Made by a program: the position numbers and the translations under genes. DNA of 64,000 bases from Sulfurimonas sp. UBA2011 (GTDB lineage: Bacteria; Campylobacterota; Campylobacteria; Campylobacterales; Sulfurimonadaceae): contig DDCH01000004.1 in NCBI GenBank assembly GCA_002335055.1, forward strand, positions 215,678 to 279,677. Reading direction: 5' to 3'. The notes under the pieces were generated by a model, which made no database searches, was not told the DNA's origin, and saw only the letters and a list, made by a program, of their open reading frames with translations. How positions within the stretch are numbered: the first letter of the stretch is position 1; each line of letters begins with the position of its first letter. Shown one piece after another: positions 8,094-22,627 of this stretch.

Positions 8094-8110
8094 CTCACCC
8101 AAAAGGGTGA
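8094..8110 (-). terminator. putative terminator of oxidoreductase operon 1
   Basis: CTCACCC-aaa-GGGTGAG lies 17 nt after the delta-1 stop. On the minus strand it is followed by TATATTTCATCATTT. Confidence 0.5.
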
Positions 8111-8126
8111 GAAATATTGAAAGTGA

Positions 8127-8351
8127 CTACTCTTCGTGACCAGCCATTTCCATTGTGATACAGTTACGATCAAGCATATCAGTACAAACGTATACACATA
8201 GTGCACACCCTTTACATCTATCTTCATCTACCCAAGATGTGTTACCATCTTTGTTGAACATAAGCGTATTTGCTTCTGGACAATATAATGTACAAGTGTT
8301 ACACTTGTACTCAGCACACATATCTGAATTAACTTTTGCTACATAATACAT
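8127..8351 (-). CDS. 2-oxoacid:ferredoxin oxidoreductase delta subunit (2x[4Fe-4S] ferredoxin-like), operon 1
   Basis: The 74-aa product has CAEYKCNTCTLYCP and CKGCALCVYVC cluster motifs. It is the last gene of operon 1 and is identical in protein sequence to 18883..19107. Confidence 0.85.
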   Translation of the reverse strand: MYYVAKVNSDMCAEYKCNTCTLYCPEANTLMFNKDGNTSWVDEDRCKGCALCVYVCTDMLDRNCITMEMAGHEE

Positions 8352-8362
8352 TTATAAAATCC

Positions 8363-9064
8363 TTATACTTTTAGTCTAACGATTAACTCGTTACCAGTAA
8401 TATCAACAGTATCAGCCATTTTGAATGTTTCATTGATAACATTCATGTTAGCTTCAAGTAGTTGCTCTTTTTTCTTGAACTTTTTCTCAATAGCAGAGTC
8501 AAGTGCAGCAGTACCACCAGATGCAACGAAAGAGTTTCCAAGGAATCTCTCACGAACTGCAGCTTCGATATGCTCTGTATTAACAAGCTTAGTAAGACCA
8601 AGAACCATACCCATCATTGCCATGTTTGTTGCAAGCTCAGTACCAGCAATTTTCATTGCTAGTCTAGTTGCGTCAAACTGAACAACAGTTGCGTTTTTTT
8701 CTTCAAGTACTGCTCTGTCATCTTCATTAAGAACATCAAAGTCAGTATTGATGATGATTAGTGCATTTGGCTTAAGACCAGTATAAAATGGCATAGTATA
8801 AGACTTACCATGAGTTACAACTTGTGAGTGGTAAATCAGGATAATATCTGGGTAAATTACTTCACCTACTTCATAAATTGGATCTGTTGATGCTCTTACA
8901 TAAGCTTCAACAGGTGCCATTCTTTTCTCAGAACCAAAAAATGGAACTAGAGATGCATAGTTACCTGCATTATCAAGACATGAACCAAGGATGTGTGCAG
9001 TAGTTACAACACCTTGACCACCTAGACCAGAAATACGTATATTATATCTTTTCTTTTCAGCCAT
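8363..9064 (-). CDS. 2-oxoacid:ferredoxin oxidoreductase gamma subunit, operon 1
   Basis: It starts MAEKKRYNIRISGLGGQGV, the gamma GxGGQG motif. I prefer the ATG at 9064, which is 1 nt after the beta stop and matches the paralogue's N-terminus, over the listed start at 9091. Confidence 0.85.
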   Translation of the reverse strand: MAEKKRYNIRISGLGGQGVVTTAHILGSCLDNAGNYASLVPFFGSEKRMAPVEAYVRASTDPIYEVGEVIYPDIILIYHSQVVTHGKSYTMPFYTGLKPNALIIINTDFDVLNEDDRAVLEEKNATVVQFDATRLAMKIAGTELATNMAMMGMVLGLTKLVNTEHIEAAVRERFLGNSFVASGGTAALDSAIEKKFKKKEQLLEANMNVINETFKMADTVDITGNELIVRLKV

Positions 9065-9065
9065 T

Positions 9066-9983
9066 TTAGTTAACCGCCTCTGCTGCTGCAACTTTTGCTG
9101 CTTTTCTTGCTTTTCTTGCTACTTTTTCTTCGCCTTCAACACGCTCGATTACTATTTTAGCTTCATCAGTCATATACTCATCAAATTTGAATCTACCTTT
9201 ACCAAGCTCAATAGCATCAGCAAAAACATCTTCAGTAGGAATAGAATACTCAATGTTACAAGAAGTGTAAGCATGAATAAAAGTTGGACCAACTTCACGT
9301 GCAACGAAGATTGCTCTTCTAATAACTTTTGCAGCTTGTTTGATGTTAGTTGGTGACATTCTTACAATGTAAACACAACCAGCAGCTTTAGCTAAATCAG
9401 TCGCAGGCATTTTCTCGAAGTCTTTACCCATTGGAGCCATCTTAAGAACAGCACCTTTTGGAGACATACCAGATGATTGACCACCAGTGTTTCCGTATAC
9501 TTCATTGTCAAGCATGATTGTAGTAAATCTTTCACCACGAATCCATGAGTGCATAGTCATAGAGAAACCAATATCCATAGTACCACCGTCACCGGCAATA
9601 GTAAGAACATCTTTAGTCTTATCAGGGAAACGTAATCTAAATGCACGAGTAAGACCAGAAGCCATTGCATTTTGATCACCATAGTTACCATAGATAAATG
9701 GAACAGCAGCTTGAGAAATCGCAAGACGACCACAACCAGCAGTACCAATTGTTACTGTTTCTTCCGGGCATGGAAGTGCAGCAAAAATTAATCTAATATA
9801 GTAAGCCATCCAGCAACCTGAACACATAGGGTGCTCTTCCATTAATTCTTTAAACTGACCCATGTTACCTGGACCAGCTTCTTCTTGTGTCTTTCCAAAA
9901 GGACCGAAGTCGATTAACTCAACGTAGTCTTTTGGTAAATATTTCTTAAATCTCTCTGATGGAGTAATATATGCTAAACTCAT
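9066..9983 (-). CDS. 2-oxoacid:ferredoxin oxidoreductase beta subunit (TPP-binding), operon 1
   Basis: It carries the TPP motif GDGGTMDIG...DNEVYGNTGGQ and N-terminal cluster cysteines (CSGC...CP...GC). Confidence 0.9.
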   Translation of the reverse strand: MSLAYITPSERFKKYLPKDYVELIDFGPFGKTQEEAGPGNMGQFKELMEEHPMCSGCWMAYYIRLIFAALPCPEETVTIGTAGCGRLAISQAAVPFIYGNYGDQNAMASGLTRAFRLRFPDKTKDVLTIAGDGGTMDIGFSMTMHSWIRGERFTTIMLDNEVYGNTGGQSSGMSPKGAVLKMAPMGKDFEKMPATDLAKAAGCVYIVRMSPTNIKQAAKVIRRAIFVAREVGPTFIHAYTSCNIEYSIPTEDVFADAIELGKGRFKFDEYMTDEAKIVIERVEGEEKVARKARKAAKVAAAEAVN

Positions 9984-9998
9984 AGTTTTATCCTTTTA

Positions 9999-11183
9999 TT
10001 ATAATTTAATATTGTGCTCAATACCGAGCGCATCGTATAGTTCAACCATGATAAGTTCAACTGGAAGTGTCATACCACCGTAAACTCTTGGACCTTCAAC
10101 AACGATACCACCATTAGGGATAGTCGCTTGAATTTCCTTAGATAACCAACCAATAATGTTGTGCTCAGGAACGATAAGAGCTTTAGCATTTTTAGCAGCT
10201 TCACGGATTTCATCTTTAGGGAAAGGTCTGATTGCTTTAACTTTAATTAAACCAACTGATAAACCTTCCTCTTGTGCGTATCTCCATGCTTCTCTAGCTT
10301 GTGCAGCAGCACAACCAGATGCAACAACAAATACATCAGCTTCAGGGTTTTGAACTTCAATTGGTCCACCAAGATACTCATAGATATATTTCATTGCACG
10401 AGAGTTAGAATCCCAAATCTCTTGTTGCCATACTGAGTGAATTAAATAACTCATAAAGTTTGACTTTTGAACAGGAGCATCACGTTGAATTCTTGCTGGA
10501 GGAGTTTCATTGTCCATTGCTGGAACTGGTGAAGCTACTGGATCAAATTCTTTGTAAACTAAGTCTTCAGACATCATGTCTACATAACCCTTAGCGTGTG
10601 TTACGAAGAAACCTTCTGTAGCAACTGCAACTGGAATATAAACGTCAACTTTTTCAGCAATAGCGAATGCTGCAAGTGTGAAGTCAAATGTATCTTGCTG
10701 ATTTTCAGCATGTAACATAACTGCACCACAATGCATCATATAAGCCATTTCGATATTATCAGGTTGAATTGATAATGGAGCATTAATAACACGAGTAAGG
10801 ATACCAAGTACCGCTGGAACTCTGTGTCCTGGCCATGAAGCGATTGCCTCTAAACCACGGATAAGTCCTGGTCCTGAAGTAGCTGTAAATAGACGAACAC
10901 CAGCTCTTGATGCACCAGCGATTGCTGACATTGTACCAAGCTCTTCTTCCGCTCTATAATACTCTTTAATGTGACCTTGAGCAAAAACATCACCAACAAG
11001 GTGCATAACCTCTGATTGTGGTGTAATTGGGTAAGCAATAGCCATGTCAACATTTGCTCTTTTAACAGCTTCAGACATTGCTTGCGCACCTGTGATGAAG
11101 TGTTTCTCTCTTGGAGCCTCATGTAGAAGATAGTTCATCTCTACTTGTTTTTTATTTAATACTGGTCTTTGAACTGCACTCAT
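9999..11183 (-). CDS. 2-oxoacid:ferredoxin oxidoreductase alpha subunit, operon 1
   Basis: AYPITPQSE, SGPGL and the C-terminal IRPFP segment are typical of KorA/PorA-type alpha subunits. Confidence 0.9.
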   Translation of the reverse strand: MSAVQRPVLNKKQVEMNYLLHEAPREKHFITGAQAMSEAVKRANVDMAIAYPITPQSEVMHLVGDVFAQGHIKEYYRAEEELGTMSAIAGASRAGVRLFTATSGPGLIRGLEAIASWPGHRVPAVLGILTRVINAPLSIQPDNIEMAYMMHCGAVMLHAENQQDTFDFTLAAFAIAEKVDVYIPVAVATEGFFVTHAKGYVDMMSEDLVYKEFDPVASPVPAMDNETPPARIQRDAPVQKSNFMSYLIHSVWQQEIWDSNSRAMKYIYEYLGGPIEVQNPEADVFVVASGCAAAQAREAWRYAQEEGLSVGLIKVKAIRPFPKDEIREAAKNAKALIVPEHNIIGWLSKEIQATIPNGGIVVEGPRVYGGMTLPVELIMVELYDALGIEHNIKL

Positions 11184-11195
11184 TTAATTTCTCCC

Positions 11196-11909
11196 TTATT
11201 CCGCGTCAGTGATATGCTCACCCTTCTTAGTCATGATGAGACTTCTATACTCGCCATAATCAGCAGGTGATAATGTACTGTTGTCCTCTTTTGGTAAAGA
11301 TGGATTTTCAGGTGGTAAAGTAGTTTCCCACTTAATGCCTAATTTATTTCTTTCTTCAATCACTATTTCTTTGAACTTAGCGATATCTGAAGCATGTAAA
11401 TCTCTAATTGATGCCATAGCTTCTTCATGTCCCATATAAGCACATAATGCAACTGTATAACAGTTAGTACCAGCACGAATCATTCTAAGTGTAAGGTTAG
11501 CATAGTGACAATGCACACCAACAAAAATACAAGCTTCGATTCTATTATCAAGGATTGTTAAGTTGGGGTGATTTGGGTTAATCTCAGCCTTAACATCAAT
11601 CTTTGGATATTTAGGTCTGTAATCTGGCATTGGAATAATTTTACAATTAGGAATTTCAGATGCTAGATCTAAAATAGCTGCTGATTTTTCTGCAACATCT
11701 TCTTTCCAGTCCCAAAGAACTTGAGGCCCAGGGAATATTGTTGGATTTTTTCTTGTAAGTAATGCAATAGCTGCATCTCTCATCGCCTCTTCTGGTGTCA
11801 CAGTATTACCATAGAGTAAAGCTGAACCTTCTGGTGCTAGTTCAACCCCCATCGCTGGTGCGGACGTTGGCATATAGCCTGCGGGGCCTACTTCTACTAT
11901 TTTCGTCAT
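11196..11909 (-). CDS. fifth (epsilon-like) subunit of a five-subunit 2-oxoacid:ferredoxin oxidoreductase, operon 1
   Basis: It is the first gene of the operon and a paralogue of 19250..19819, sharing IFPGPQVL, DYRPKYPKID, INPNHPNLT and GVHCHYAN. A subunit of this size accompanies the For/Por five-subunit enzymes of Hydrogenobacter, as I recall. Confidence 0.65.
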   Translation of the reverse strand: MTKIVEVGPAGYMPTSAPAMGVELAPEGSALLYGNTVTPEEAMRDAAIALLTRKNPTIFPGPQVLWDWKEDVAEKSAAILDLASEIPNCKIIPMPDYRPKYPKIDVKAEINPNHPNLTILDNRIEACIFVGVHCHYANLTLRMIRAGTNCYTVALCAYMGHEEAMASIRDLHASDIAKFKEIVIEERNKLGIKWETTLPPENPSLPKEDNSTLSPADYGEYRSLIMTKKGEHITDAE

Positions 11910-12432
11910 ATTAACTCCTTATATTTAATGAAAAAGTTTTGTTTAATACACTCTAATAAGTATATAAAACATTTTAAATTCAATATCTAATTATACATTT
12001 ACAACTAGATATAAAGTCCTACAAAAGAGTATAGCATCAGCTACTCTCTCGAAAAACTTGAATTTGTGCCTAATTGTATCGAAATAATCTTTAAGTAGAT
12101 TAAAATAATCCTCTGAATTTTCTATTAAGGACATAGATACAGTGGATTTAAAAGGAATATAAAGGAGAAAAGAGAGCATAGTATTTCAGATTGTTAGTCT
12201 AATATATGGCTTTAAGCATAGTAAAATAGGGCTTTATCGAAGATATGTTACTTGTTTTGTGACATAGTAGGAGATAGTTCTAAATATCGAGGAAAATGCG
12301 ATTATGTCAGGAGCTTTAAATTGTCTTATGTGGGTATATTCGTTACACTAATATATGGAGAAAAACCATATATTAGCTAGGGTGAGTATATTTGTTACAC
12401 ACTGATATAATAAATGTGTGTTAAAAATCTAC

Positions 12433-12690
12433 TTAACAACCGCAAGAACCACAACTATCTGTACTACAACTATCTTCTGAACCATTATTAGCTGCTACTC
12501 TAATTAAATATTCATTATCATTTGACTTTTCAGCATAAAACATATGTGTTTTACAAAAATCTTCATTCATCATTTCCATGAGACTTATTGTGTATTTGTA
12601 AGCTTCTGGTTGAAATTGAAATGTAGACTCTTTTTTATATTCACTTTTTAGAAAACAAGCACATTCGCGCTCCATTGTAACTGTATACAT
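12433..12690 (-). CDS. small Cys-rich protein, CxC...CxxH family, with CSTDSCGSCGC tail
   Basis: The 85-aa ORF has AAGGA 5-6 nt upstream and a TATAAT hexamer (12728-12733) about 38 nt upstream. It is a paralogue of 12862..13179, sharing MYT..[MI].[RK]ECACF.KS and N..FC..H.F.A. Confidence 0.6.
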   Translation of the reverse strand: MYTVTMERECACFLKSEYKKESTFQFQPEAYKYTISLMEMMNEDFCKTHMFYAEKSNDNEYLIRVAANNGSEDSCSTDSCGSCGC

Positions 12691-12821
12691 AGTGTTCCTT
12701 TTGGGTATTATTAACGAAAGTATAGTTATTATAACTGAAATAGAGGTATTTTTAATATGTAGTTGTGGTTGATAAAGATTTTTTTATTTTAAAGAAGTGA
12801 AAGTTTAGAAAGATATGCAAG

Positions 12822-12840
12822 AAGTGAGGTATACTCACTT
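12822..12840 (-). terminator. putative terminator of the dab operon
   Basis: AAGTGAG-gtata-CTCACTT (7-bp stem) lies 22 nt after the stop of the 105-aa gene and is followed by a moderately T-rich tract. Confidence 0.4.
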
Positions 12841-12861
12841 GTTACATAGTGTACAGTGTGC

Positions 12862-13179
12862 TTAGTTTCCACCAGCATCTTTTGGTGGTTTTTCACCAGC
12901 ATCAAAGCCGATTACAACACCACTTCTACTAACAAGCTCACTTGCTGTCTCAATATCATCTTCATCGTCTTCAATAGGTCTAACATTACTATGAATAATA
13001 ATCTTATCTTGATAGTCAACAGCTTGGAAATAATGCTTCATACAAAAGTTTTGATTCATAAGGCATTCTATAACACGTGCTTTATTAATCATGTCCTCTC
13101 TTGTCTCAAATTCCATATTGTTTTTTATGTCACTTTTTATAAAACAAGCACATTCTTTGTCAATTTCTATTGTATACAT
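12862..13179 (-). CDS. small CxC...CxxH protein, last gene of the dab operon
   Basis: The 105-aa ORF has AAGGAG 5 nt upstream and lies 26 nt after dabA. C10, C12, C46 and H49 are at the same positions as in the 85-aa paralogue. The C-terminus is acidic and Gly/Pro-rich. Confidence 0.6.
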   Translation of the reverse strand: MYTIEIDKECACFIKSDIKNNMEFETREDMINKARVIECLMNQNFCMKHYFQAVDYQDKIIIHSNVRPIEDDEDDIETASELVSRSGVVIGFDAGEKPPKDAGGN

Positions 13180-13205
13180 TTATTCTCCTTGAATATTTTT
13201 TGAAA

Positions 13206-16073
13206 TTATATCTCTTTTATAACAATAAACTCACCATTTTCATAAGAATAGACTTTTTTAGCCTCTCTATCTATGATGACGGGGCGAATCCATTCATTTA
13301 AAATAAATTCTTTTGCGATAGAATTCTCTACTGCTTTACCTACCATTTCTAAAGGTGCCTCAACAAATGAGATAAGACGAACCGGTTCGTGGTATGCTTC
13401 ACCTTCTAAAAATACAGACTGAATAGGTAGCCCAATTTTTAAGTCACTGTAGTTACCACTAAATACACCGACTTTTGATACGACGTTGTGATACACTTTT
13501 GAACCTGCACCATAGACATGGTTATCAACTGTAGAGAAGTAATGTTCTAGATTAATCCACTCACCTACAATTAATGGTCCATCAAAAATAGCTGTAAGAA
13601 TTTCAGCATCTTGGTTATCTACTTTATAGTCATAAGAGTGCATAAAAAATCTATTGTTAAGTTCTAGGTGTTTAGTATAAGACCTTGGCCCTGCAAATAC
13701 ACCCATATTACGTGCTAGTCCCCACTCAGGTCTAGTCTCAGACCAGTCCATAGACTTTATAAGCATCTCTTCTTTTGTGTTTGTAAAAGGAAGAGTTTGT
13801 GATCTCTCCTCACGTGAAAGTTGTGATGCCTTGTTGAAGTCATCTTTAATTTTTGAAAACTTTTCAGACTGTTCATCATTTAAAATTTCAGTATCAAAAA
13901 ACTTAATTTCATCAGTTGATGTAATATGAAGACCAGGCATAAACCTTGTATTTTCTGGAAGATGAATGCCTTTTTCTTTGATTTTTTCTCTAACATCTGG
14001 AGTATTAGCAATCATACAAAGCGCACGTGTGTTTGGTAAACTAATATTTCCACCACAAGCACCACAATCAAGTGCTGATTCAAAAGGATTATTATCAGAA
14101 ACAGATCCATGTCCAATTATTGTAATAAATTCTGGAAAGTTTTTCACCTGTCCAATCATTGTTAAGTATTTATATAGATAAGAAACTTTTTCTTCTAAGG
14201 TAAAACCAACCATAGCAAGCTTTTTCTTTTGGTACTCATAATCTTCTGGTGTAATCTGATATGATGTTTTAAGCTCATCGATCAAAGTGTCAGGTAAGTC
14301 CTTTTTTAATGCTTCATTAAAAAGAAGGTGTTTACGAAGATTTTCTACATCATCATCAGTACAGTTTTTCTTATCATGATCATCTAAAACAGCATGAATA
14401 ATCTTAGTATGCAGTTTTTTAACATAAAATTCAATTTCATCTGATGAGAGTTTATCAAGTGTGTAAGTCGTTTTTGGCTTACTTGGTTTCATCTTAGAAA
14501 AGAACTTGTTTGTTTTGATCGGTGAAAATGTTTTACCAAATAAAGTAATACCAAAAATCCAACCAATGGCTTCTACCATTATATATGGAGTATATGGGTT
14601 GTTCTTTAAGTCACTTAAAACTTTTTTTGTCGTTTTGTAAGTTCCTTTTTTTGAACTGTACTCTTCATGTACTTCAACCGGTAATTCAAATACAACATTT
14701 TGTGGTTTAATGATAGCAGGTGCTAAAAAAAGCTCATGTGCTTTGTCAAACTCTACAAAGGCTATAGGAAGACCAAGAAAACCTCCCGCTCCAAAAGTTT
14801 CATAGGCACCTTGGCTTTCAATTGAGCGGCGCATAACTTCTGAACGAACATCTAAACAAAAAGTTGCTGAGGCTATTGCTTTTTCTTTTACAGGTACAAC
14901 ATTAACAACTTCATCTACATAATGACTAATATATGTGTCTTCTAAAGATTTAAGCCAGATATACCCTTCTTCTTCTCGTAACTTATCTAAAATAGGAGAG
15001 AGCTCAGTTAAAGGAAGTTTACTTTGCAGAACTTCATTTGAGTGTTGAATTTGAAGTGCATCTAAATGTAATTCATTTTTAACATGGTCTGCTAAGACCT
15101 TTGAAGTCTCTTCCTTGTCTTCTAACTCATCTAAAGCTATTCCAAATAGCATATTTTTATGTTTGAGTAGTTGTAAAATTACATCACTTAAGTTTGCTTC
15201 AGCATATGCAGCAAAAATCTTAAAAGTACTAATCTTATTCGTTTTTACTGCTTTGAGTTCATAGTAGAGTCTAATAGCCATATAGTCTATAAGCTCAGAT
15301 GGATACTCTTGTTGTGAAACATTATCTGGATCTTCTGAACGATACTTAATAAATCCTGCCCAACCATGAAGTTTAAGAAGGTGTGTTAAAAAGTAAGACT
15401 CAATGTCCTCTACTTGAAGTTCTTTAAATGCCTCTTCTACAAAACTCTCAGCATTTTTTGGATAATCCACAGCCTCAAAAAGTTTAAAAACCTCAAACAT
15501 ACCTAAGTTTCTGTTTGGCATAGGCATTGTAGTCTGGTCTTCATCTAGAAAACGAGAGATAAATTCAATAATACTCTTTTCAATTCCATCTTTATCATCA
15601 AGCCCAAAGAGTGCATCATTAATCTCATATAGAGTCATGTGTTTGATAAGTTGGGCTAACCATGCTTTCTCATCAGAATATAAAGAGTGTGACTGTAAGT
15701 ATGCATATAAATCATCATCAGTTTTTTCTACTTTAGAAATAAGTTCTACTCTAAGACTTGACCATAAAGGACTTACTTCCATTAAGAACTTCTTAGCAAA
15801 CTCTAAAGGAATATTAAAACCCTTGTCTGTGAGAACTTTTTTGATATTTTCTTCAAATATGCTATCGTTAATTTTACCTTCTTCATAAAGATCTTTGTAA
15901 TATGAAGAGTCCATGTAAACCTGACCACCAAAAATACTTTTAGCCTTACTCAGTCCATCTTTAAAGTGCATGTTTTCAAAACCCTTTAAAGGGTTATGAT
16001 GAATAAACGATCCAATAGGCCAATAATGCGGTACGGTGCTCTTTACAGCATTAAGTTTTTCTATAATACTCAT
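13206..16073 (-). CDS. dabA: DabA (DUF2309 family), catalytic subunit of a DAB inorganic-carbon pump
   Basis: The 955-aa product starts with HYWPIGSFIHHNPL. It has beta-carbonic-anhydrase-like metal-site motifs FCLDVRSE (C-x-D-x-R) and GHGSVSDNNPFESALDCGACGG. It is encoded next to a NuoL-like subunit. Confidence 0.85.
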   Translation of the reverse strand: MSIIEKLNAVKSTVPHYWPIGSFIHHNPLKGFENMHFKDGLSKAKSIFGGQVYMDSSYYKDLYEEGKINDSIFEENIKKVLTDKGFNIPLEFAKKFLMEVSPLWSSLRVELISKVEKTDDDLYAYLQSHSLYSDEKAWLAQLIKHMTLYEINDALFGLDDKDGIEKSIIEFISRFLDEDQTTMPMPNRNLGMFEVFKLFEAVDYPKNAESFVEEAFKELQVEDIESYFLTHLLKLHGWAGFIKYRSEDPDNVSQQEYPSELIDYMAIRLYYELKAVKTNKISTFKIFAAYAEANLSDVILQLLKHKNMLFGIALDELEDKEETSKVLADHVKNELHLDALQIQHSNEVLQSKLPLTELSPILDKLREEEGYIWLKSLEDTYISHYVDEVVNVVPVKEKAIASATFCLDVRSEVMRRSIESQGAYETFGAGGFLGLPIAFVEFDKAHELFLAPAIIKPQNVVFELPVEVHEEYSSKKGTYKTTKKVLSDLKNNPYTPYIMVEAIGWIFGITLFGKTFSPIKTNKFFSKMKPSKPKTTYTLDKLSSDEIEFYVKKLHTKIIHAVLDDHDKKNCTDDDVENLRKHLLFNEALKKDLPDTLIDELKTSYQITPEDYEYQKKKLAMVGFTLEEKVSYLYKYLTMIGQVKNFPEFITIIGHGSVSDNNPFESALDCGACGGNISLPNTRALCMIANTPDVREKIKEKGIHLPENTRFMPGLHITSTDEIKFFDTEILNDEQSEKFSKIKDDFNKASQLSREERSQTLPFTNTKEEMLIKSMDWSETRPEWGLARNMGVFAGPRSYTKHLELNNRFFMHSYDYKVDNQDAEILTAIFDGPLIVGEWINLEHYFSTVDNHVYGAGSKVYHNVVSKVGVFSGNYSDLKIGLPIQSVFLEGEAYHEPVRLISFVEAPLEMVGKAVENSIAKEFILNEWIRPVIIDREAKKVYSYENGEFIVIKEI

Positions 16074-16801
16074 AGTAGTATCTCCTTAAGTCCATATAGA
16101 CTAAACAATAGTAACATACCAACGATAAGCATGTGTGGTATTTTTTCTTTTATTGTCATATGTACATAATGTATGTTTGCGTTTGGTCTTCCAAAAAGTG
16201 TTTTTTTCATTACACCCATAGAAAGAAAAAAGTTACCAAAAAAGAGTGTTATAACAACAGCAAACCAAAGAGGATTCGACTCGCTTCCTAAAATATAGTG
16301 TAGAAAAAAGAGTGAATTTGGAAAAGGTGGATATAGCGCTACTGCAATCAGGTAAAAAGTTAAGTAACTACCAATGTATGGTCTCACTAGTGTGATCCCT
16401 GTTATGTAACGATAATTAGCACTACCATAGTTTTTCTCATAAAATCTTCCTATCAAGTAGAGACCTGAAAGGGATAAAAGAAGAGAAAGACTATATAAAG
16501 AACTCTCTCCTTCATAAAGAACAAAAAATGGAGCATTAACAAATATAAAATAATATGCAAGTTTATAAAAGTTTGTTGTTTTTGTTGCTCTATAGATAGT
16601 AAAGACTGCATTTATGAGTGAAATAATTACAAGTGATGTTTTATGCTCATTTGGTACATACAGTGAAAGCCCAATATTAGATAAAAGTGCAAAAGCACTC
16701 AGTAAAAATATATGCTTACTTTTAATAGCAGGAATTTTTTCCAATATAAGATAATAAGGAACTCCTGCGGCTAATATCAAAAATAGAATATTATAGATCA
16801 T
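16070..16801 (-). CDS. polytopic membrane protein resembling the C-terminal half of an antiporter-like (NuoM/N/L) subunit
   Basis: The 243-aa product has about 7-8 hydrophobic helices. The segment ALYPPFPNSLFFLHYILGSESNPLWFAVVITLFFGNFF recalls the PP.GF..K region of Nuo/Mrp antiporter subunits. Its start overlaps the dabB stop by 11 nt and its stop overlaps the dabA start (ATGA). Confidence 0.65.
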   Translation of the reverse strand: MIYNILFLILAAGVPYYLILEKIPAIKSKHIFLLSAFALLSNIGLSLYVPNEHKTSLVIISLINAVFTIYRATKTTNFYKLAYYFIFVNAPFFVLYEGESSLYSLSLLLSLSGLYLIGRFYEKNYGSANYRYITGITLVRPYIGSYLTFYLIAVALYPPFPNSLFFLHYILGSESNPLWFAVVITLFFGNFFLSMGVMKKTLFGRPNANIHYVHMTIKEKIPHMLIVGMLLLFSLYGLKEILL

Positions 16802-18422
16802 TTTTATTCCTTTTTAGGGCTTTAATAATATTAAAGAAGTAACCTTCTTTTGCTAGAAATTTATAAAATGACCATTTAAGGCTATTTTTGTTTTCGTTAG
16901 TTTTAAGGACTTTTGCAAAGTGTTGTGTATACATAAATAACCACCCTACAATCATAATAGCGGCTAAGATAACAAGTAACATAATAGTAGTTATGTTAAA
17001 TGTTGCTGCTTCATAAAAGAGAATTGCATTTTCTCCGTAGATAAAATGTTCTAATGATAAACCAATAAACTCATATGTAAAAAGAATAATAACAAATGAA
17101 CTTACAAGTGCTAATATAACCTTGAATGAGTCGGCTTTAGATACTTTAAAGAATGAGAGAAAAAGTTGTGTACCAGTTAACCAAGCAAAGGCCAATATAA
17201 TGATAGAAGCATTAAGCTCAAAGAAGTCATCAGTTAATACCATTTTTACACCTACAAAAGTCACAACAGGTAAGATAGTGAAAAAAGCTAAGTAGTTAAA
17301 CAGTTTTTTACTATTACTTTTAATCTTTTCTTCCCAAAAGAGCTCATATGTAAGGCGTTTAGGTAGGTTTGAGTCATGACGCGCTAACTTAATCAATGCT
17401 CCTGACTCTAAAAAGAGTGTAGCTTTGAATATACCATGGACTATGAGGTGATAAATAGCAAGAGAGAAAGCACCAAGGCCTATCTCCATAATCATATATC
17501 CCATCTGTCCAACTGTGGAGTATCCTAAAGAGCGTTTGATATCAGAGACAACAAGCATAATCAAAGAGGCAAAAATTGCTGTTACTAAACCAACTACAAA
17601 AGCGATGTTAAGTACAGCAGGTGCAAGTAGTAAAAGAAAAGCGAGTTTGTTAAGTAAAATTCCTCCTACATTAACTACACCAGCATGCATAACAGCAGAT
17701 ACAGGAGTAGGGGCTTCTGATGTATATGGTAACCAGATATGAAAAGGCATAATAGCTGACTTCATCATAGCCGCTATTAAAAAGAGTAAACCAATAACAA
17801 AAATCATTGGATTATCTACTGGTTCATGCGACATAGCTAACCATTTCTCACTTAATATAGTTAAGTCTAAACTATCAAATGTTTGATATGTTAAGATAAT
17901 AGCGATTATAAAGACTAAATCGGCAGCTTTATGAATTATCATAACCCATTTTGCATTTTTTACAGCAGTGTTTGAGCCGACATTAAATGAAACAAGCAGA
18001 TATAAACTAATACTAAGTAGTTGCCAAGCAAGAGCAAGTACTATAAGGTTGTTACTCATTACAAATAGATATATAGAAGCGAAGATAAAGTTTAAAAGAA
18101 TAAAAAATCTTCTATAACCTGCTTCATCCCACATATACTTAGTTGCATACTTTCTTATGACAAGACCGAGTATAGCAACATAAGGGACTAGTATCGCTGA
18201 GAGTTCATTATATACAAGAAGGCCATCAAAGCCAATAATCTGTGTATCATTACTTATGACATAATATGTACCATACAATGCAAGTAGTGCTATCATACTT
18301 GAAAGCATGATACTAACCCTTGGTATAAGTTCTTTTTTTCCGATAAATAGCAATAAGAATGCTATGAAAATTGGGATACCCGGAATGAGTAATATTATTT
18401 TTTCCACTGTAACTCCTGACAT
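16791..18422 (-). CDS. dabB: DabB (NuoL/ND5-like proton-conducting membrane subunit)
   Basis: The 543-aa product carries KSAIMPFHIWLPYTSEAPTPVSAVMHAGVVNVGG and DIKRSLGYSTVGQMGYM...HGIFKATLFL, the PF00361-type signature as I remember it. Confidence 0.85.
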   Translation of the reverse strand: MSGVTVEKIILLIPGIPIFIAFLLLFIGKKELIPRVSIMLSSMIALLALYGTYYVISNDTQIIGFDGLLVYNELSAILVPYVAILGLVIRKYATKYMWDEAGYRRFFILLNFIFASIYLFVMSNNLIVLALAWQLLSISLYLLVSFNVGSNTAVKNAKWVMIIHKAADLVFIIAIILTYQTFDSLDLTILSEKWLAMSHEPVDNPMIFVIGLLFLIAAMMKSAIMPFHIWLPYTSEAPTPVSAVMHAGVVNVGGILLNKLAFLLLLAPAVLNIAFVVGLVTAIFASLIMLVVSDIKRSLGYSTVGQMGYMIMEIGLGAFSLAIYHLIVHGIFKATLFLESGALIKLARHDSNLPKRLTYELFWEEKIKSNSKKLFNYLAFFTILPVVTFVGVKMVLTDDFFELNASIIILAFAWLTGTQLFLSFFKVSKADSFKVILALVSSFVIILFTYEFIGLSLEHFIYGENAILFYEAATFNITTIMLLVILAAIMIVGWLFMYTQHFAKVLKTNENKNSLKWSFYKFLAKEGYFFNIIKALKRNKNDL

Positions 18423-18882
18423 TTTTTATTAATAGTATAAGACTTTTAGCATTTATATTTTTAAGTTAAGTTAAATATATAAATGAATTTAGATAGTAAA
18501 GCTAATATTTAGTGACTCTATCAGTTTACCATATTTGTAATACATTTCGACAGACTATTGTTAAAGGTGTAAAAAGTAATACTGTTTTGAAAATAAAAGA
18601 TAAATTTTACATGACTTGTTACACTTTGTAGCACAAGTATAGTGAACCTAAAAATAAAATCTGATTGATTTAATTAAATCATCGACAAATTTGTGTTTAT
18701 ATTAGGTAAAATCTTAACTAAATAGATAAAATAAGATTGTAATGTCTTAAATTAAAGAGAATTAAAAGGTTATTTGAGTAAAGTGCTATTCGAGAAACAT
18801 AAATTATAGTTTAAAACTATTGTTAGGTCTTATTTATATAAGAACTGATACCAATGTTTAAGTCATCATTAAGGAGTAAATA
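18423..18882. promoter_or_regulatory. 460-bp divergent control region between dabB and oxidoreductase operon 2
   Basis: This is the longest intergenic spacer of the locus and is extremely AT-rich. It must contain the dab promoter and the delta-2 promoter. SD AAGGAG lies 7 nt before ATG 18883. Confidence 0.5.
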
Positions 18883-19107
18883 ATGTATTATGTAGCAAAA
18901 GTTAATTCTGACATGTGTGCTGAATATAAATGTAACACTTGTACTTTATATTGTCCAGAAGCGAATACGCTAATGTTCAATAAGGATGGTAACACATCTT
19001 GGGTCGATGAAGATAGATGTAAGGGGTGTGCACTATGTGTGTACGTATGTACTGATATGCTTGATCGTAACTGTATTACGATGGAAATGGCTGGTCACGA
19101 AGAGTAG
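18883..19107 (+). CDS. 2-oxoacid:ferredoxin oxidoreductase delta subunit (2x[4Fe-4S]), operon 2
   Basis: The protein is 100% identical to that of 8127..8351. There are 16 nucleotide differences, all synonymous. It is followed by a 142-nt spacer. Confidence 0.85.
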   Translation: MYYVAKVNSDMCAEYKCNTCTLYCPEANTLMFNKDGNTSWVDEDRCKGCALCVYVCTDMLDRNCITMEMAGHEE

Positions 19108-19834: not shown

Positions 19835-21034
19835 ATGGCATCAATTAAAGATATGACAGATACACATAACTGGTCTGGACAGAAATTAGTTACAGCAGAT
19901 CACATGCTTTTCGAAGCACCACGTGAAAAGCACTTCATGACTGGTTCTGAAGTTTTAAAAGAAGCGGTAAAAAGATGTACAGTAGATGCATCAGTATCTT
20001 ACCCAATTACACCACAATCAGAAGCAGCTCACCTTATCGGTGAACTATGGGCTGAAGGTTATGTTGGTACATACTTCCGTGGAGAAAATGAGTTCGGTGT
20101 TATGTCAGAAGTTGCTGGTTGTGCAATGGCTGGAGCAAGAACTATTACTACGACTTCAGGTCCTGGTACACTTAGAGCAATGGAAAACTTTCCACAATGG
20201 TCTGGTACAAGAATTCCTTGTCAACTAATCCTTATGGCTCGTGGTATTAACTCACCACTTACTATTCAACCTGATAATCTTGAAGTTACATTCATGTTAG
20301 AAACTGGTTGTATGATTTGGTATGCTGAAAATGTTCAAGAGTTATTTGACATGAGTATCGCTGCATTTATCGTTGCTGAAAAGCCTGATGTACATGTGCC
20401 TATCGTTACTGTTGTTGATGGTTTCTTTGTATCTCATACACGTGAGTCTGTAATGTTACCAGCTGATGATATCGCTCTTTTACCTTACGAGCCATACAAA
20501 TCTCCATTACCTCCGATTGATTCTGAAACTCCTCCAGGTCGTTTCTTAAGAGATCCATTTGTAATGAAGTCTAACTATATTTCTTATGCAACTCACGCTT
20601 CATGGCAGTGGGAAGTGAGATCTGCAGTTGAGCGTTCACGTCCATATGCTAAGCACTTCCTTAACGGTCTTGTTCATGTAACTGGAGCTCCTGACGCTGA
20701 AATCGCATTTGTTACTTGTGGTACTGCTTCTCATCAAGCAAAAGAAGCTGAAAGAGAGTTAATGAAACTTGGTGTTAAAACTAAGGTTATTAAACTTAGA
20801 ACTATCAGACCATTTCCAAAAGAAGAACTTCTTGCTGAGCTTGAAGGCGTTAAACATATTTTCGTACCAGAATTCAACGTTGTTGGTTGGTTAGAAAAAG
20901 AAGTTAAAACTGCTCTTCATAACAATCACACAGCTGAAGTTGTTGGTGGCCCTAGAGTTGCTGGTGGTATGAGTATGCCTGCTGAAGCGATTCTTAAAGA
21001 AGTGTTTGAACACATTAACGTAGAAGGAAAATAA
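19835..21034 (+). CDS. 2-oxoacid:ferredoxin oxidoreductase alpha subunit, operon 2
   Basis: It carries the SYPITPQSE, SGPGT and IRPFP motifs. Confidence 0.9.
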   Translation: MASIKDMTDTHNWSGQKLVTADHMLFEAPREKHFMTGSEVLKEAVKRCTVDASVSYPITPQSEAAHLIGELWAEGYVGTYFRGENEFGVMSEVAGCAMAGARTITTTSGPGTLRAMENFPQWSGTRIPCQLILMARGINSPLTIQPDNLEVTFMLETGCMIWYAENVQELFDMSIAAFIVAEKPDVHVPIVTVVDGFFVSHTRESVMLPADDIALLPYEPYKSPLPPIDSETPPGRFLRDPFVMKSNYISYATHASWQWEVRSAVERSRPYAKHFLNGLVHVTGAPDAEIAFVTCGTASHQAKEAERELMKLGVKTKVIKLRTIRPFPKEELLAELEGVKHIFVPEFNVVGWLEKEVKTALHNNHTAEVVGGPRVAGGMSMPAEAILKEVFEHINVEGK

Positions 21035-21035
21035 G

Positions 21036-21905
21036 ATGGCAATTGATATATACAAAATCAACCCTGAATTCCGTGACATTATGCCTAAAGAGATTATTGA
21101 TCTTGAGGAAAATGCAACATGGGCTCAAAACCGAATAAAACCACGTGGTATTAAAGAAATGCCAGATACTAAAGAGATTCTAGAAGAACACTCTTTATGT
21201 GCTGGTTGTCCTGAATCTGCTGCACTTAGATATGTTCTAGCAGCATTACCATGTCCAGAAGAGACTATAATTGTTAACTCAACTGGTTGTACTTCTTTGA
21301 TGTTCCCACACATCGCACTTCATACTGTTCACTCACTTTTTGGTAATCAAAATGCTGTTGCAACTGGTATTAAGCGTGTTCTTGACTGGAGATTTCCAGA
21401 TAAGCAAAAAGATGTTATGGTTCTAGCTGGAGACGGTGCTACTGTTGATATCGGTCTTGACTATACACTTCAGTCTTTCTTTAGACAAGAAAATATCACT
21501 ACAATTTGTTTTGATAATGAAGTTTATGCAAATACTGGTGGACAAGAATCAGGTGCAACTCCAAAAGGTCAAGTTTTCAAAATGGCACCTTTAGGTAAGA
21601 AATTTGAAAAAGTTAAAATGTGGGAATTAGCTACTACTGCTGGTTGTCATTATACTATGAACATGACTGCTTCTGCTCCTAAAGCAGTTGCTAAAGCTGT
21701 TCGTGAAGCTATTTTAGTTGCAAGAGAAATCGGACCAACATTCCTTAACATTTATACTCCTTGTATTCTTGAAATTGGACTTAGTGCAAATGAAGGTCTT
21801 GGCGAAATGAAAGATCAAGATAAAGATAGATTTGCATCTTACAAGTTTGTTTCTCCAGAAGCAGAAGAATACTTGAAAAAATGTAAAGCAGAAGGAAAGT
21901 TATAA
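21036..21905 (+). CDS. 2-oxoacid:ferredoxin oxidoreductase beta subunit (TPP-binding), operon 2
   Basis: It carries GDGATVDIG...DNEVYANTGGQ and the CAGC...CP...GC cysteines. Confidence 0.9.
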   Translation: MAIDIYKINPEFRDIMPKEIIDLEENATWAQNRIKPRGIKEMPDTKEILEEHSLCAGCPESAALRYVLAALPCPEETIIVNSTGCTSLMFPHIALHTVHSLFGNQNAVATGIKRVLDWRFPDKQKDVMVLAGDGATVDIGLDYTLQSFFRQENITTICFDNEVYANTGGQESGATPKGQVFKMAPLGKKFEKVKMWELATTAGCHYTMNMTASAPKAVAKAVREAILVAREIGPTFLNIYTPCILEIGLSANEGLGEMKDQDKDRFASYKFVSPEAEEYLKKCKAEGKL

Positions 21906-22627
21906 TGGCTAAAGATTCAATCAAAGTAAGACTTCCGGGTCTTGGTGGTCAAGGTGCAGTTACAGCTGCACACATCGCAGCTACTGCTGCTGATACTGAA
22001 GGATACTTCGCTGTGTCTAATCCATTTTTTGGTGCAGAAAAGCGTATGGCTCCATCTGAGTCTTATGCAAGAATAGGTACTGTGCCTATTTACGATAGAG
22101 GGGAAGTAATTTATCCTGATATCGTTATGATTTTCCACCCACAAGTTATTACTATGGGTAAATCATACACTATGCCTTTTTATGCTGGTATTAAAGATAA
22201 TGGTCTTGTTATTATTAACTCTGATATTGATCTTTTAACTGATGTTGATAAGAGAATTCTTGCTGACAAAAATGTTAAAGTACTTACTCGTGACTTTACT
22301 AAGTTTGCAATTGAGCAAGCTGGTACTGAACTTGCTACAAACATGGCTATGCTTGGTGCATTATTTGGTGCTCTTGGTACAATCTCTAAGTCTGCTATTG
22401 AAGAGGGAATCAAAGATAGATTCCTTAAGAAATATACAGCTTCTGGTGGTACTGCTACACTCGATTCAGTTATTGAAAAGAAATTTAAGAAAAAGAAAGA
22501 ACTTATTCAAAAAAATCTTGATACTGCATCAGCTGCTTATGATTTAACTGCTGCTTGGGCTAAAGAAGTAGGACTAGAACAAATTCTAGAACCTTCTAAG
22601 CACAACAACGGTAACATCGTAAAGTAA
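21905..22627 (+). CDS. 2-oxoacid:ferredoxin oxidoreductase gamma subunit, operon 2
   Basis: It starts MAKDSIKVRLPGLGGQGAV and is collinear with 8363..9064. Confidence 0.85.
   Translation: MAKDSIKVRLPGLGGQGAVTAAHIAATAADTEGYFAVSNPFFGAEKRMAPSESYARIGTVPIYDRGEVIYPDIVMIFHPQVITMGKSYTMPFYAGIKDNGLVIINSDIDLLTDVDKRILADKNVKVLTRDFTKFAIEQAGTELATNMAMLGALFGALGTISKSAIEEGIKDRFLKKYTASGGTATLDSVIEKKFKKKKELIQKNLDTASAAYDLTAAWAKEVGLEQILEPSKHNNGNIVK

Follow-up and report, generated by a model that had tools for sequence, protein, structure and literature searches.

One ferredoxin-like subunit, encoded twice, probably serves both CO2-fixing enzymes of Sulfurimonas

The 64,000-nucleotide stretch of DNA analyzed here (the window) comes from a Sulfurimonas within the S. 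pluma group and contains two predicted operons for five-subunit 2-oxoacid:ferredoxin oxidoreductases (Table 1). Each operon carries a gene for a 74-amino-acid (aa) ferredoxin-like subunit, D1 in operon 1 and D2 in operon 2, and the two genes encode the same protein. The question is whether this identity is the trace of a recent copying event or whether the protein is kept uniform for both enzymes. We lean toward the second answer, in which one interchangeable subunit would serve both enzymes and would be held uniform by selection together with gene conversion.

Two five-subunit operons and their 74-residue subunit

Both operons encode an alpha subunit with POR_N/PFOR_II domains, a beta subunit with a TPP_enzyme_C domain, and a gamma subunit with a POR domain. 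Each operon also had one subunit of the PF02552 family (CO dehydrogenase beta/ACS epsilon family; E1 and E2), an extra subunit of a type specific to five-subunit oxidoreductases (PMC10052474). In Aquifex aeolicus, the gene orders and subunit masses of OGOR and PFOR are known and the clusters were assigned biochemically (PMC10052474). The gene orders and subunit sizes in the window match these, with E1 of 237 aa and E2 of 189 aa compared with 27.6 and 21.3 kDa. This synteny suggests that operon 1 encodes an Aquificales-type five-subunit 2-oxoglutarate:ferredoxin oxidoreductase (OGOR) and operon 2 its pyruvate counterpart (POR). By kinship with the Hydrogenobacter/Aquifex type, both predicted enzymes would have oxygen-tolerant carboxylating activity. 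The nearest solved structure to A1 was 9bt4_B. Homologues of both five-subunit operons have already been reported in Sulfurimonas pluma (PMC10052474; PMC10066037; bioRxiv 10.64898/2026.09.02.748891). The genes between the operons (DabA, the 243-aa ORF, and the DabB-like gene) showed synteny with Aquificota loci, and they also lay between the clusters at loci L071 and L078. Aquificota are the apparent source of the locus.

Table 1. Positions of the operon genes, spacer genes, and hairpins in the window
Feature	Description	Coordinates	Strand	Profile matches
Hairpin 3' of D1	Intrinsic-terminator-like, CTCACCC-TTTT-GGGTGAG, T-rich tail	8094..8111	-	
D1	74-aa subunit, two [4Fe-4S] sites, end of operon 1 (OGOR), 11 nt 3' of gamma	8127..8351	-	
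Hairpin within D1	9-bp hairpin in coding sequence, codons 14-21, T-rich run next; not in D2; terminator-like	8290..8310	-	
G1	Operon 1 gamma subunit	8363..9064	-	Pfam POR; TIGR02175 above cut-off
B1	Operon 1 beta subunit, TPP-binding	9066..9983	-	Pfam TPP_enzyme_C
A1	Operon 1 alpha subunit, 394 aa	9999..11183	-	Pfam POR_N + PFOR_II
E1	Operon 1 fifth subunit, CO_dh-like, 237 aa	11196..11909	-	Pfam PF02552, 1e-43
Spacer genes	DabA, 243-aa ORF, DabB-like; separate operons 1 and 2	13206..18422	-	
DabA		13206..16073	-	Pfam DabA, 5e-204
243-aa ORF	Between DabA and DabB-like genes	16070..16801	-	
DabB-like	Membrane protein, proton-conducting	16791..18422	-	Pfam Proton_antipo_M
D2	Second 74-aa subunit copy, opens operon 2 (POR), 142 nt 5' of E2	18883..19107	+	
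E2	Operon 2 fifth subunit, CO_dh-like, 189 aa	19250..19819	+	Pfam PF02552, 3e-48
Segment after E2		19835..22627	+	Pfam + NCBIfam profile searches

Both D1 and D2 translate to MYYVAKVNSDMCAEYKCNTCTLYCPEANTLMFNKDGNTSWVDEDRCKGCALCVYVCTDMLDRNCITMEMAGHEE. The sequence contains eight cysteines in the motifs C-x4-C-x2-C-x3-CP and C-x2-C-x2-C-x3-C, the two [4Fe-4S] motifs expected of a small ferredoxin-like subunit. Profile matches of D1 to Pfam Fer4_21 (just under cut-off) and NCBIfam PorD_KorD were both below the curated cut-offs. An AF2 model (mean pLDDT 68) gave weak Foldseek matches to dicluster ferredoxin domains (E ≥ 0.03, TM 0.55 to 0.68) and none at E below 0.001. From Aquificota through Campylobacterota, 28 columns do not vary. 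The original prediction named the 74-aa subunit delta and the CO_dh-like subunit epsilon, which inverts the Hydrogenobacter/Aquifex usage, where epsilon is the 74-aa ferredoxin-like subunit and delta the CO_dh-like one (PMC10052474).

The window contains two copies of the gene only, and alignment of D2 with the reverse complement of the D1 interval reproduced the predicted 209 identical nucleotides of 225. The 16 differences (11 transitions and 5 transversions) were all third-position and synonymous. They fall in codons 9, 10, 14, 15, 16, 21, 27, 30, 33, 34, 41, 47, 53, and 55, as originally listed, and in codons 65 and 66 rather than 64 and 65. Among the possible single-base changes in this gene, 18.5% are synonymous, and the chance that all 16 differences would be so was 2e-12, or 7e-11 with transitions and transversions weighted separately (P about 1e-11). 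The likeness stops precisely at the start and stop codons. The flanks are unrelated, as predicted (32% identity over 100 nt on the 5' side and 25% on the 3' side), and a search of the neighboring spacers found no remnants of the 74-aa gene. The spacings originally given for the two copies relative to their neighbors were both correct.

An assembly or consensus artefact, with a single real locus or with copies made alike by polishing, would be conceivable because MAG assembly can go wrong at short repeats. However, the copies are told apart by 16 sites and by distinct, well-defined contexts, and an artefact would erase differences without regard to whether they are synonymous. The same two-copy layout was seen again in more than 15 independent assemblies, single-cell genomes among them, many with both copies on one contig. 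An artefact is therefore excluded for practical purposes.

The other subunit pairs, put very roughly at half identical by eye in the original prediction, were 40 to 53% identical: 53.2% for the CO_dh-like subunit, 42.5% for alpha, 40.3% for beta, and 49.4% for gamma. Codon comparison gave a pS of 0.39 and a dN of 0 for D1 and D2, compared with a pS of 0.61 to 0.65 and a dN of 0.40 to 0.58 for the other four pairs. Together with the sharp ends of the likeness, this lower pS fits the reading of the original prediction, in which a single recent event (duplication, replacement, or conversion of the whole gene) would have been succeeded by ordinary purifying selection only, with no selection for uniformity. 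That reading is already strained by the distribution of the differences, since those at codons 10, 14-16, 30, 33, 53, 55, 65, and 66 were also present in genome C21 and in much more distant genomes. The split between D1 and D2 is therefore older than the species radiation.

Uniform proteins and diverged silent sites in related species

The clade comparison covered 16 species-level genomes of related species, each with both copies. In all two-copy genomes compared, D1 lay after G1 and D2 before E2, and paralogues were assigned by this conserved synteny. Over a gene of only 74 codons and about 41 synonymous sites, D1 and D2 of one genome differed on average at 17.9 synonymous sites and 0.12 residues, whereas orthologues of different species differed at 15.1 to 17.1 synonymous sites and 5.3 residues. 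Paralogues within a genome were closer than orthologues at the protein level but not at synonymous sites, and in 14 to 15 of the 16 genomes the genome's own paralogue was less close at these sites than another species' orthologue. The ratio of residue to synonymous differences was 0.007 within genomes and 0.31 to 0.35 between orthologues, with the closest species pairs at about 0.13. Only 2 residue differences were observed in total, whereas the permutations of a permutation test averaged 79 and never gave fewer than 36 (P < 5e-5).

The third-position tree clustered the copies by genomic context, and the amino-acid tree clustered them by genome; at the protein level, the two genes evolve in concert across the clade. 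The context signal was significant in a label-swap test over the whole gene (P < 2e-4) and from codon 23 to the end (P = 0.0004). The original prediction that the two genes coalesce later than the rest of their operons stands insofar as their likeness far exceeds that of the other pairs, but the event was not recent, because the context-specific synonymous states of D1 and D2 are common to many species. Its statement that the copies have tolerated no amino acid change is true of this genome; across the clade, 13 columns varied with at least 23 state changes, which were mirrored in both copies (D1 and D2 states agreed in 206 of 208 cells).

These counts bear on a recent copying event in two ways. 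Orthologues gained 5.3 residue differences over the radiation while within-genome paralogues gained 0.12, and the rate in close species pairs would predict about 37 residue changes within genomes, where 2 were seen. We regard recent copying with purifying selection only as unlikely, and on these sequence comparisons the identity of D1 and D2 is not the product of a recent, one-off conversion.

Purifying selection alone, by which constrained old paralogues would stay identical without exchange as in histone-type birth-and-death evolution, agrees with the dN of 0 in the window and with the 28 invariant columns. However, the 16 genomes encoded 12 distinct proteins, and D1 and D2 products were the same in 15 of them. 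In addition, the D genes of Faavne and Ca. S. ponti have an extra codon and a rewritten C-terminal tail common to both copies, which cannot occur twice independently. We consider this explanation very improbable; as a sole cause, purifying selection is refuted by the protein variation between genomes.

Conversion tracts, parallel mutation, and the hairpin in D1

The proposal of gene conversion was borne out by mosaic tracts in relatives. The copies of Ca. S. ponti were identical over nt 1-146 (P = 0.005), and tract tests gave P values of 0.047 for MFD10247 and 0.04 for Faavne; P was below 0.01 in only 1 of 16 pairs, the gene being short and the tests having little power. Marker painting showed D2-type markers in the D1 genes of MFD10247 and N2Bin, and the D1 gene of MAG158 had a 3' end of D2 type. 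The near-complete conversion in MFD10247, N2Bin, and Ca. S. ponti is also what recent whole-gene conversion would leave. The uniform protein is itself a mosaic, with residues 1-48 nearer to the Sulfurovum-type D1 and residues 49-69 99% D2.

Matching residues were also reached by different mutations. The replacement T57S was encoded by TCT in three copies linked to OGOR and by AGT in three linked to POR, and relatives had ACT in both copies; such a pair is not obtainable by conversion. E74D (GAC/GAT) and E74A (GCA/GCG) likewise used different codons in the two copies, and of the cells in which both copies shared a minority state, 11 of 53 had different codons. Other members of the family also switch between T and S at position 57, so the TCT/AGT case taken singly could be a coincidence. 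Neutral conversion with purifying selection cannot give the within-genome ratio of 0.007 against 0.31 to 0.35, nor the TCT/AGT pair, so that selection for uniformity would be needed too.

The hairpin within D1 had a predicted dG of -11.2, compared with -4.3 for the equivalent codons of D2, and only 4% of synonymous encodings reached its stability. It occurred in 19 of 37 OGOR-linked copies, in none of 34 POR-linked copies, and in none of 11 single copies. Codons 14, 15, 16, and 19, the most diagnostic synonymous sites, make up its stem. Part of the context-specific synonymous signal lies in this stem (codons 14-19), where selection may preserve it instead of ancestry, and the hairpin region is therefore weaker as a clock.

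The hairpin accordingly gives weight to a further possibility, in which whole-gene conversion is frequent and copy-specific selection on silent sites, through mRNA structure, translation initiation, or regulation, restores the differences. Also in its favor, exchanging the first 63 nt between contexts produced a consistent shift in predicted folding energy (Wilcoxon P = 0.005 to 0.006). The context signal, however, extends outside the hairpin: from codon 23 to the end, synonymous differences between D1 and D2 numbered 11.4 within and 12.2 between genomes, and residue differences 0.12 and 4.2. Restoration would need at least a dozen silent sites, scattered rather than clustered, to be under selection, and it leaves TCT/AGT at codon 57 unexplained. 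We consider it decidedly unlikely.

A shared subunit in relatives and in known systems

We propose that OGOR and POR would each depend on a small two-cluster ([4Fe-4S]) subunit to carry electrons between free ferredoxin and the catalytic core. In the Sulfurimonas lineage, the 74-aa subunit may have become a common module, with D1 and D2 feeding one pool that serves either core. Both products would then have to suit one set of partners, made up of the two cores and a common set of external ferredoxins, so that a replacement in one copy would be either purged or matched in the other, by short-tract gene conversion or by a separate mutation fixed by selection. Synonymous sites would be free of this pressure and would retain older, context-specific divergence, part of which the OGOR-linked hairpin may maintain. 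From these patterns we infer both the common pool and selection as the cause of uniformity; exchange of the subunit between the enzymes is suggested by gene content.

The idea of a shared ferredoxin-like module, raised in the original prediction, is strongly backed by a Sulfurovum clade, where one D gene lies between both gene sets in a nine-gene cluster (E1-A1-B1-G1-D-E2-A2-B2-G2). This cluster was present at 11 or more Sulfurovum-group loci (L055, L057-L061, and L063-L067), counted among the best 80 of 194 matches, mostly from incomplete MAGs. Three Hydrogenothermaceae loci (L070, L071, and L073) had a POR cluster without its own D gene. In contrast, two diverged copies (dN 0.05 to 0.16) are retained in Sulfurovum-like genomes of a sister group (CB6, GLR145, BB9, co3_354, and Co_bin127), and uniformity is therefore not obligatory for the enzyme pair. 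In Aquificota, the two D proteins were only 62 to 68% identical (S. azorense and KC_006), thereby indicating that homogenization took place inside Campylobacterota.

The subunit set (alpha, beta, gamma, dicluster ferredoxin-like, and CO_dh-like) is that of the five-subunit O2-tolerant POR and OGOR of Hydrogenobacter thermophilus and A. aeolicus. The A. aeolicus gene orders, [CO_dh-like]-alpha-beta-gamma-[Fd-like] for OGOR and [Fd-like]-[CO_dh-like]-alpha-beta-gamma for PFOR, are also the same, and the neighbors DabA, DabB-like, and CobW match those of Hydrogenothermaceae and S. azorense. The Fd-like subunits of Aquificota are distinct, however (Fd2 and Fd3 in A. aeolicus), whereas they are identical here, and the clusters of the Sulfurovum clade have a single gene. 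The published accounts of the operons and their synteny make no mention of an identical or single Fd-like subunit (PMC10052474; PMC10066037; bioRxiv 10.64898/2026.09.02.748891).

In Thermococcales, POR and VOR use one common gamma gene, Por/VorG, and the sharing was shown biochemically (PMC4058850). There, too, two adjacent paralogous 2-oxoacid:ferredoxin oxidoreductases have one common small subunit, and the direct gene-order analogue is the single-D cluster of Sulfurovum. The shared subunit is gamma in Thermococcales but would be the Fd-like electron-transfer subunit here, as the genes suggest. The window has two genes with identical products, hence no single gene for both enzymes as in Thermococcales; in the Sulfurovum-group loci, a single gene is indicated by gene order.

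Long-lasting prokaryotic duplicates mostly show high similarity at synonymous and nonsynonymous sites alike (PMC6053082). Here, unlike in most such cases, synonymous divergence reaches the level seen between species, and uniformity is confined to the protein. Histones likewise have identical paralogous proteins with many synonymous differences, but histone proteins scarcely vary across species, whereas the 74-aa subunit varies across species and not within a genome, a pattern that purifying selection alone cannot produce.

The tuf duplicates are old, lie in differing genomic contexts, often inverted, and are kept alike by gene conversion, and selection for uniform products has been argued. The D genes are likewise old duplicates in different contexts that are alike within a genome, although they are tiny (225 nt) and their homology stops at the start and stop codons. 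Tests for tuf-like selection for uniform duplicates found a deficit of residue differences between paralogues relative to orthologues and the same replacement reached through different mutations. One subunit probably serves both CO2-fixing enzymes of Sulfurimonas, as sequence evidence suggests. With the tuf duplicates and the shared POR/VOR gamma of Thermococcales as known kindred cases, the Sulfurimonas pair is a further example of these kinds of sharing and uniformity.

Two five-subunit operons and their delta genes

Each operon encodes an alpha subunit (POR_N, PFOR_II), a beta subunit (TPP_enzyme_C) and a gamma subunit (POR); its remaining two products are a small subunit with two four-cysteine motifs and a fifth one that belongs to the CO_dh family (PF02552). 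Both operons are of the five-subunit enzyme type first described from Hydrogenobacter thermophilus. In Aquifex aeolicus, in-gel activity and mass spectrometry identified a cluster with the order CO_dh-like (27.6 kDa)-alpha-beta-gamma-Fd-like as OGOR and a cluster with the order Fd-like-CO_dh-like (21.3 kDa)-alpha-beta-gamma as PFOR (PMC10052474). The operons in the window matched these clusters in gene order and sizes (CO_dh-like subunits of 237 aa and 189 aa), and on this synteny operon 1 most likely encodes OGOR and operon 2 POR. The A. aeolicus literature names the Fd-like subunit epsilon and the CO_dh-like subunit delta (PMC10052474), which is the opposite of the labels in the original prediction. 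Here, delta is kept for the 74-aa protein, with D1 for the OGOR-linked and D2 for the POR-linked gene; E, A, B and G denote the CO_dh-like, alpha, beta and gamma subunits, numbered by operon.

Five-subunit enzymes of Sulfurimonas pluma, with Aquificales-like synteny and a proposed role in oxygen tolerance, have been published (PMC10066037; bioRxiv 10.64898/2026.09.02.748891), and neither report mentions the identity of the two Fd-like subunits. A sequence search of the PDB returned no five-subunit enzyme of this type, the nearest entries being a four-subunit PFOR (9bt4) and an OGOR (8ys5), and no match to the CO_dh-like subunit. The predicted delta structure was of moderate confidence (pLDDT 68) and matched only generic dicluster ferredoxin domains in Foldseek (E>0.01). 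A ninth cysteine at delta residue 63 (R-N/D-C-I) was conserved in all Campylobacterota copies and in the OGOR-linked copies of Aquificota, and was alanine in the POR-linked copies of Aquificota.

Re-alignment confirmed that both 225-nt ORFs encode the same 74-aa protein and that their 16 nucleotide differences are all third-position and synonymous (11 transitions, 5 transversions). The codon list reported earlier was correct except for its last two entries, which are codons 65 and 66 rather than 64 and 65. Because only 18.5% of the possible single-base changes in the delta gene are synonymous, 16 of 16 synonymous differences have a probability of ~2e-12, or 7e-11 when transitions and transversions are treated apart. 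The identity of the two proteins is thus far beyond chance. The flanks are unrelated, as had been claimed (32% and 25% identity over 100 nt), and no delta remnants were found in the spacers adjoining the two genes. The other four subunit pairs showed 40-53% protein identity between the operons, with pS of 0.61-0.65 and dN of 0.40-0.58, compared with pS of 0.39 and dN of 0 for the delta pair; synonymous sites of these four pairs were near saturation. A runs test for a conversion tract was not significant for the window pair (P=0.62), and no recent tract was found in the window.

Features of the window and of related loci
Feature	Positions	Strand	Remarks
LRR protein (LRR_14, LRR_8)	6004-6711	-	235 aa; overlaps the end of the trigger-factor gene
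Trigger-factor gene	6668-7924		
D1	8127-8351	-	last gene of operon 1
Hairpin in D1	8290-8310	-	codons 14-21
DabA, 243-aa ORF, DabB-like membrane protein	13206-18422	-	between operons 1 and 2
D2	18883-19107	+	first gene of operon 2
D2 region compared with the hairpin	18919-18954	+	
Promoter-like site	19181-19208	+	TTGAAA-16-TATAGT, 10/12 matches
CobW GTPase	22747-23721	+	after operon 2 (POR)
Uptake neighbourhood, locus L071	10600-17200		adds hemerythrin
Uptake neighbourhood, locus L078	1500-9965		adds SbtA and P-II
POR cluster with delta, locus L074	870-4665		uncultured Sulfurospirillum
D-E2-A2-B2-G2 blocks, locus L044	2310-5943; 9998-13631		7.7 kb apart

The closest genomes among the matches listed were Sulfurimonas single-cell genomes and MAGs, including SAG-AH-194-C21 (C21), which showed 85-86% DNA identity to the window over ~21 kb. 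The two operons flank a DabA/DabB-type inorganic-carbon uptake system. This neighbourhood, with its 243-aa ORF and CobW, was also present in Hydrogenothermaceae and in Sulfurihydrogenibium azorense, a distribution that fits movement of the locus as one block. Because the uptake genes are kept beside both operons in these lineages, genes for carbon fixation and carbon uptake appear to travel as a single module. Some 1.4 kb downstream of D1 lies the gene for the LRR protein, a domain type unusual for free-living Campylobacterota. A promoter-like site lies between D2 and E2, in their 142-nt spacer, so D2 may be transcribed apart from the rest of the POR operon; the count of such sites was not above shuffled controls. 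A spacer of ~145 nt occurred only among the closest relatives of the window, and those of other two-copy genomes were 36-84 nt.

One protein from diverged DNA

The two copies were compared in 16 species-level genomes of the Sulfurimonas/Sulfuricurvum clade with both copies present. Within a genome, D1 and D2 differed on average by 17.9 synonymous nucleotides and 0.12 residues, compared with 15.1 and 5.3 for D1 between genomes and 17.1 and 5.3 for D2 between genomes. Residue differences within genomes totaled 2, whereas permutations gave 79 on average and never fewer than 36 (P<5e-5). The 16 genomes encoded 12 different proteins, and D1 and D2 encoded the same one in 15 of them; at 13 variable columns with at least 23 state changes, the copies of one genome agreed in 206 of 208 cells. 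Every protein change during the species radiation ended up in both copies. The third-codon-position tree grouped the genes by genomic context, whereas the amino-acid tree grouped them by genome. When context labels were swapped within genomes, the silent-site signal was significant for the whole gene (P<2e-4) and from codon 23 to the end (P=0.0004), and in 14-15 of the 16 genomes an orthologue of another species was nearer at silent sites than the paralogue in the same genome. C21 and much less closely related genomes also had the window differences at codons 10, 14-16, 30, 33, 53, 55, 65 and 66, so the silent divergence of the copies predates the species radiation. The original prediction had proposed one late copy replacement or conversion, after which no amino acid change was tolerated. 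Neither a recent event nor a frozen protein was borne out, given this older silent divergence and the variable columns whose changes are matched within genomes.

Two other causes of this pattern were rejected. Synonymous saturation would equalize silent divergence within and between genomes, but orthologues of close species pairs differed little (at 4 and 7 sites between the window and C21, compared with 16-19 between paralogues), and the context labels carried signal. A mutation bias of strand or replication orientation was rejected because the same copy-specific silent states were found where both copies share one strand (D-E2A2B2G2...E1A1B1G1-D).

Gene conversion, as proposed earlier, does play a role, and its tracts and markers were visible in several genomes. 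The copies of Ca. S. ponti were identical over nt 1-146 and then differed at 8 sites (P=0.005); D1 of MFD10247 and of N2Bin carried D2-type markers, and D1 of MAG158 had a 3' end of D2 type. In Faavne and S. ponti, both copies had the same inserted codon and the same rewritten C-terminal tail. Compared with a diverged Sulfurovum-type pair, the uniform protein was a mosaic, nearer D1 in residues 1-48 (0.89-0.90 vs 0.81-0.84) and essentially D2 in residues 49-69 (0.99 vs 0.77); the C-terminal third of D2 is the part nearer the Aquificota POR-linked subunit.

However, conversion alone is insufficient for the uniformity of D1 and D2. The ratio of residue to silent differences was 0.007 for paralogues within genomes, compared with 0.31-0.35 for orthologues overall and ~0.13 for the closest species pairs. 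Shared replacements lay 1-5 codons away from retained copy-specific silent states. The last codon encoded E, A, D or G depending on the genome, yet was matched within genomes, in several cases with differing codons (GCA/GCG, GAC/GAT, GGA/GGC), and homology stops three bases later. For T57S, serine was encoded by TCT in three OGOR-linked copies and by AGT in three POR-linked copies, with ACT in both copies of relatives; neither conversion nor silent steps can interchange these serine codons. From these results, we conclude that heterogeneity between the two products is probably removed by selection, which would act on variation supplied by conversion patches or by recurrent mutation.

Frequent conversion, with silent sites restored afterwards by selection, deserves some weight as an alternative in view of a hairpin inside D1. 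This 9- to 11-bp hairpin, followed by a T-rich stretch, occurred in 19 of 37 OGOR-linked copies but in none of the 34 POR-linked or 11 single copies, and only 4% of the synonymous encodings of the peptide reach such stability. Campylobacterota D1 genes without it were mainly those whose 5' half appears to have been converted by D2 (S. ponti, MFD10247, N2Bin, L026, L029); in a few others the stem was weaker or the peptide altered (L028, L034, L043, L050, L053). The stem is made up of precisely those codons (14, 15, 16 and 19) whose silent states are copy-specific, so selection on RNA or DNA structure probably maintains some of the silent-site signature. The hairpin could possibly act as an internal attenuator or as an element of mRNA processing or stability. 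Restoration of this kind leaves unexplained both the signal outside the hairpin and the TCT/AGT case.

Gene arrangements among relatives

A scan with one genome per species gave 77 loci (best 80 of 194 hits), onto which the nine proteins of the window were mapped. At least 11 loci of the Sulfurovum group (L055, L057-L061, L063-L067) had a single delta gene in the order E1-A1-B1-G1-D-E2-A2-B2-G2 on one strand, placed 16-23 nt after gamma (L063: 106 nt) and 170-193 nt upstream of the POR genes. Seven loci (L002, L004, L007, L017, L044, L050 and L047, the last ending at a contig edge) carried direct repeats, D-E2A2B2G2 followed after 1.3-1.8 kb by E1A1B1G1-D. A divergent layout, in which the copies are inverted, was found in the window and in seven or more other genomes. 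In Aquificota, E1A1B1G1-D was followed after 7-8 kb by D-E2A2B2G2, and the two subunits were clearly different (62% identity in S. azorense, 68% in KC_006). In the Hydrogenothermaceae loci L070, L071 and L073, no delta gene was found before the POR genes (~17.4 kb, upstream of E2). The sole delta within 20 kb in these loci was the one after the OGOR gamma gene, and the related loci L077 and L078 had two distinct copies.

Other observations concern single loci or groups. L074 showed a fourth arrangement, with delta past the gamma end of the POR cluster on the opposite strand. The two D-E2-A2-B2-G2 blocks of L044, whose delta copies had zero differences, arose very recently by tandem duplication or are an artefact of co-assembly. 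Most single-copy Sulfurovum deltas (L057-L068) contained an insertion of 5-7 residues (e.g., KHGNDHG) at residues ~35-42, in the loop between the cluster-binding motifs; it was absent from L055 and from all two-copy genomes. Where a single delta is present, the spacer between D and E2 showed no remnants of a deleted copy above shuffled controls. An inversion between inverted copies as the source of the nine-gene cluster is speculation; the orphan inverted copy that it predicts was not seen at any locus within 10 kb. In addition, the OGOR and POR operon trees conflicted in the placement of MAG092 (L002) relative to L004, L007, L050 and L017: it grouped with MAG158/MAG222 for OGOR (bootstrap 99) and with MAG243, ZodW and co3_354 for POR (bootstrap 82-95). 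Each operon was therefore exchanged between lineages independently of the other, and both delta proteins of MAG092 are still identical.

A proposed shared electron-transfer subunit

The single-gene clusters of the Sulfurovum group and the uniform protein support the earlier proposal of one shared module. The earlier interpretation thus stands for sharing and for conversion, and falls for the recent event and the frozen protein. One subunit can suffice for both enzymes, provided that single-delta genomes hide no second copy elsewhere. The delta subunit would carry two clusters joining the core to external ferredoxin. The products of both genes would enter a common pool for assembly with either core, and each copy would then meet identical partners and a common lineage-specific optimum. 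A Sulfurovum-like genome group keeps two diverged copies (dN 0.05-0.16), and uniformity is therefore a state of some lineages and not a requirement of the enzyme type.

A bolder joint reading is somewhat less likely than not. In it, delta is a free-exchange Fd-like module of the O2-tolerant POR and OGOR of Campylobacterota, selection enforces a single protein per cell, replacements pass between the two old gene copies in very short conversion tracts or arise again through independent mutation, the DNA itself remaining diverged, and the terminator-like D1 hairpin sets the relative output of both genes. If so, the lineages would show step by step how two enzyme-specific subunits merged, from distinct subunits (Aquificota) through diverged pairs (some Sulfurovum-like genomes) and identical pairs (Sulfurimonas/Sulfuricurvum) to a single gene (Sulfurovum clade).

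The five-subunit POR and OGOR are thought to permit CO2 fixation by rTCA autotrophs such as Sulfurimonas pluma in fully oxic water, and the role of their small subunits is poorly defined. One identical electron-entry subunit for both carboxylating enzymes, encoded in some lineages by a single gene, is a testable statement on the delivery of reducing power to two key steps of the cycle. The surface positions that co-vary with the rest of the cell are pointed to as residues 8-11, 33-36, 57, 61, 66 and the C-terminal tail. Represented in dozens of species and in three gene arrangements, the 74 codons also form a compact data set for molecular evolution in which concerted evolution of the protein is decoupled from homogenization of the DNA, which allows selection for uniformity to be told apart from neutral gene conversion. 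For annotators, the absence of a ferredoxin-like gene from a POR cluster is not in itself a sign that the cluster is incomplete.

Duplicate tuf genes evolve in concert, and selection for uniformity has been argued for them; the delta pair resembles tuf in combining concerted evolution, here of the protein, with probable selection for uniform products. In Thermococcales, POR and VOR have one gamma gene in common, a biochemical precedent for subunit sharing within this enzyme family, to which the sharing proposed here is a counterpart inferred from genomes (PMC4058850). An identical electron-transfer subunit for both rTCA carboxylating enzymes, kept at the protein level only and with a single-gene end state among relatives, appears undescribed in the literature examined. 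Altogether, the system is of known kinds, joining the five-subunit POR and OGOR reported for the genus, tuf-like concerted evolution and Thermococcales-like sharing, of which it is a new and directly testable example.
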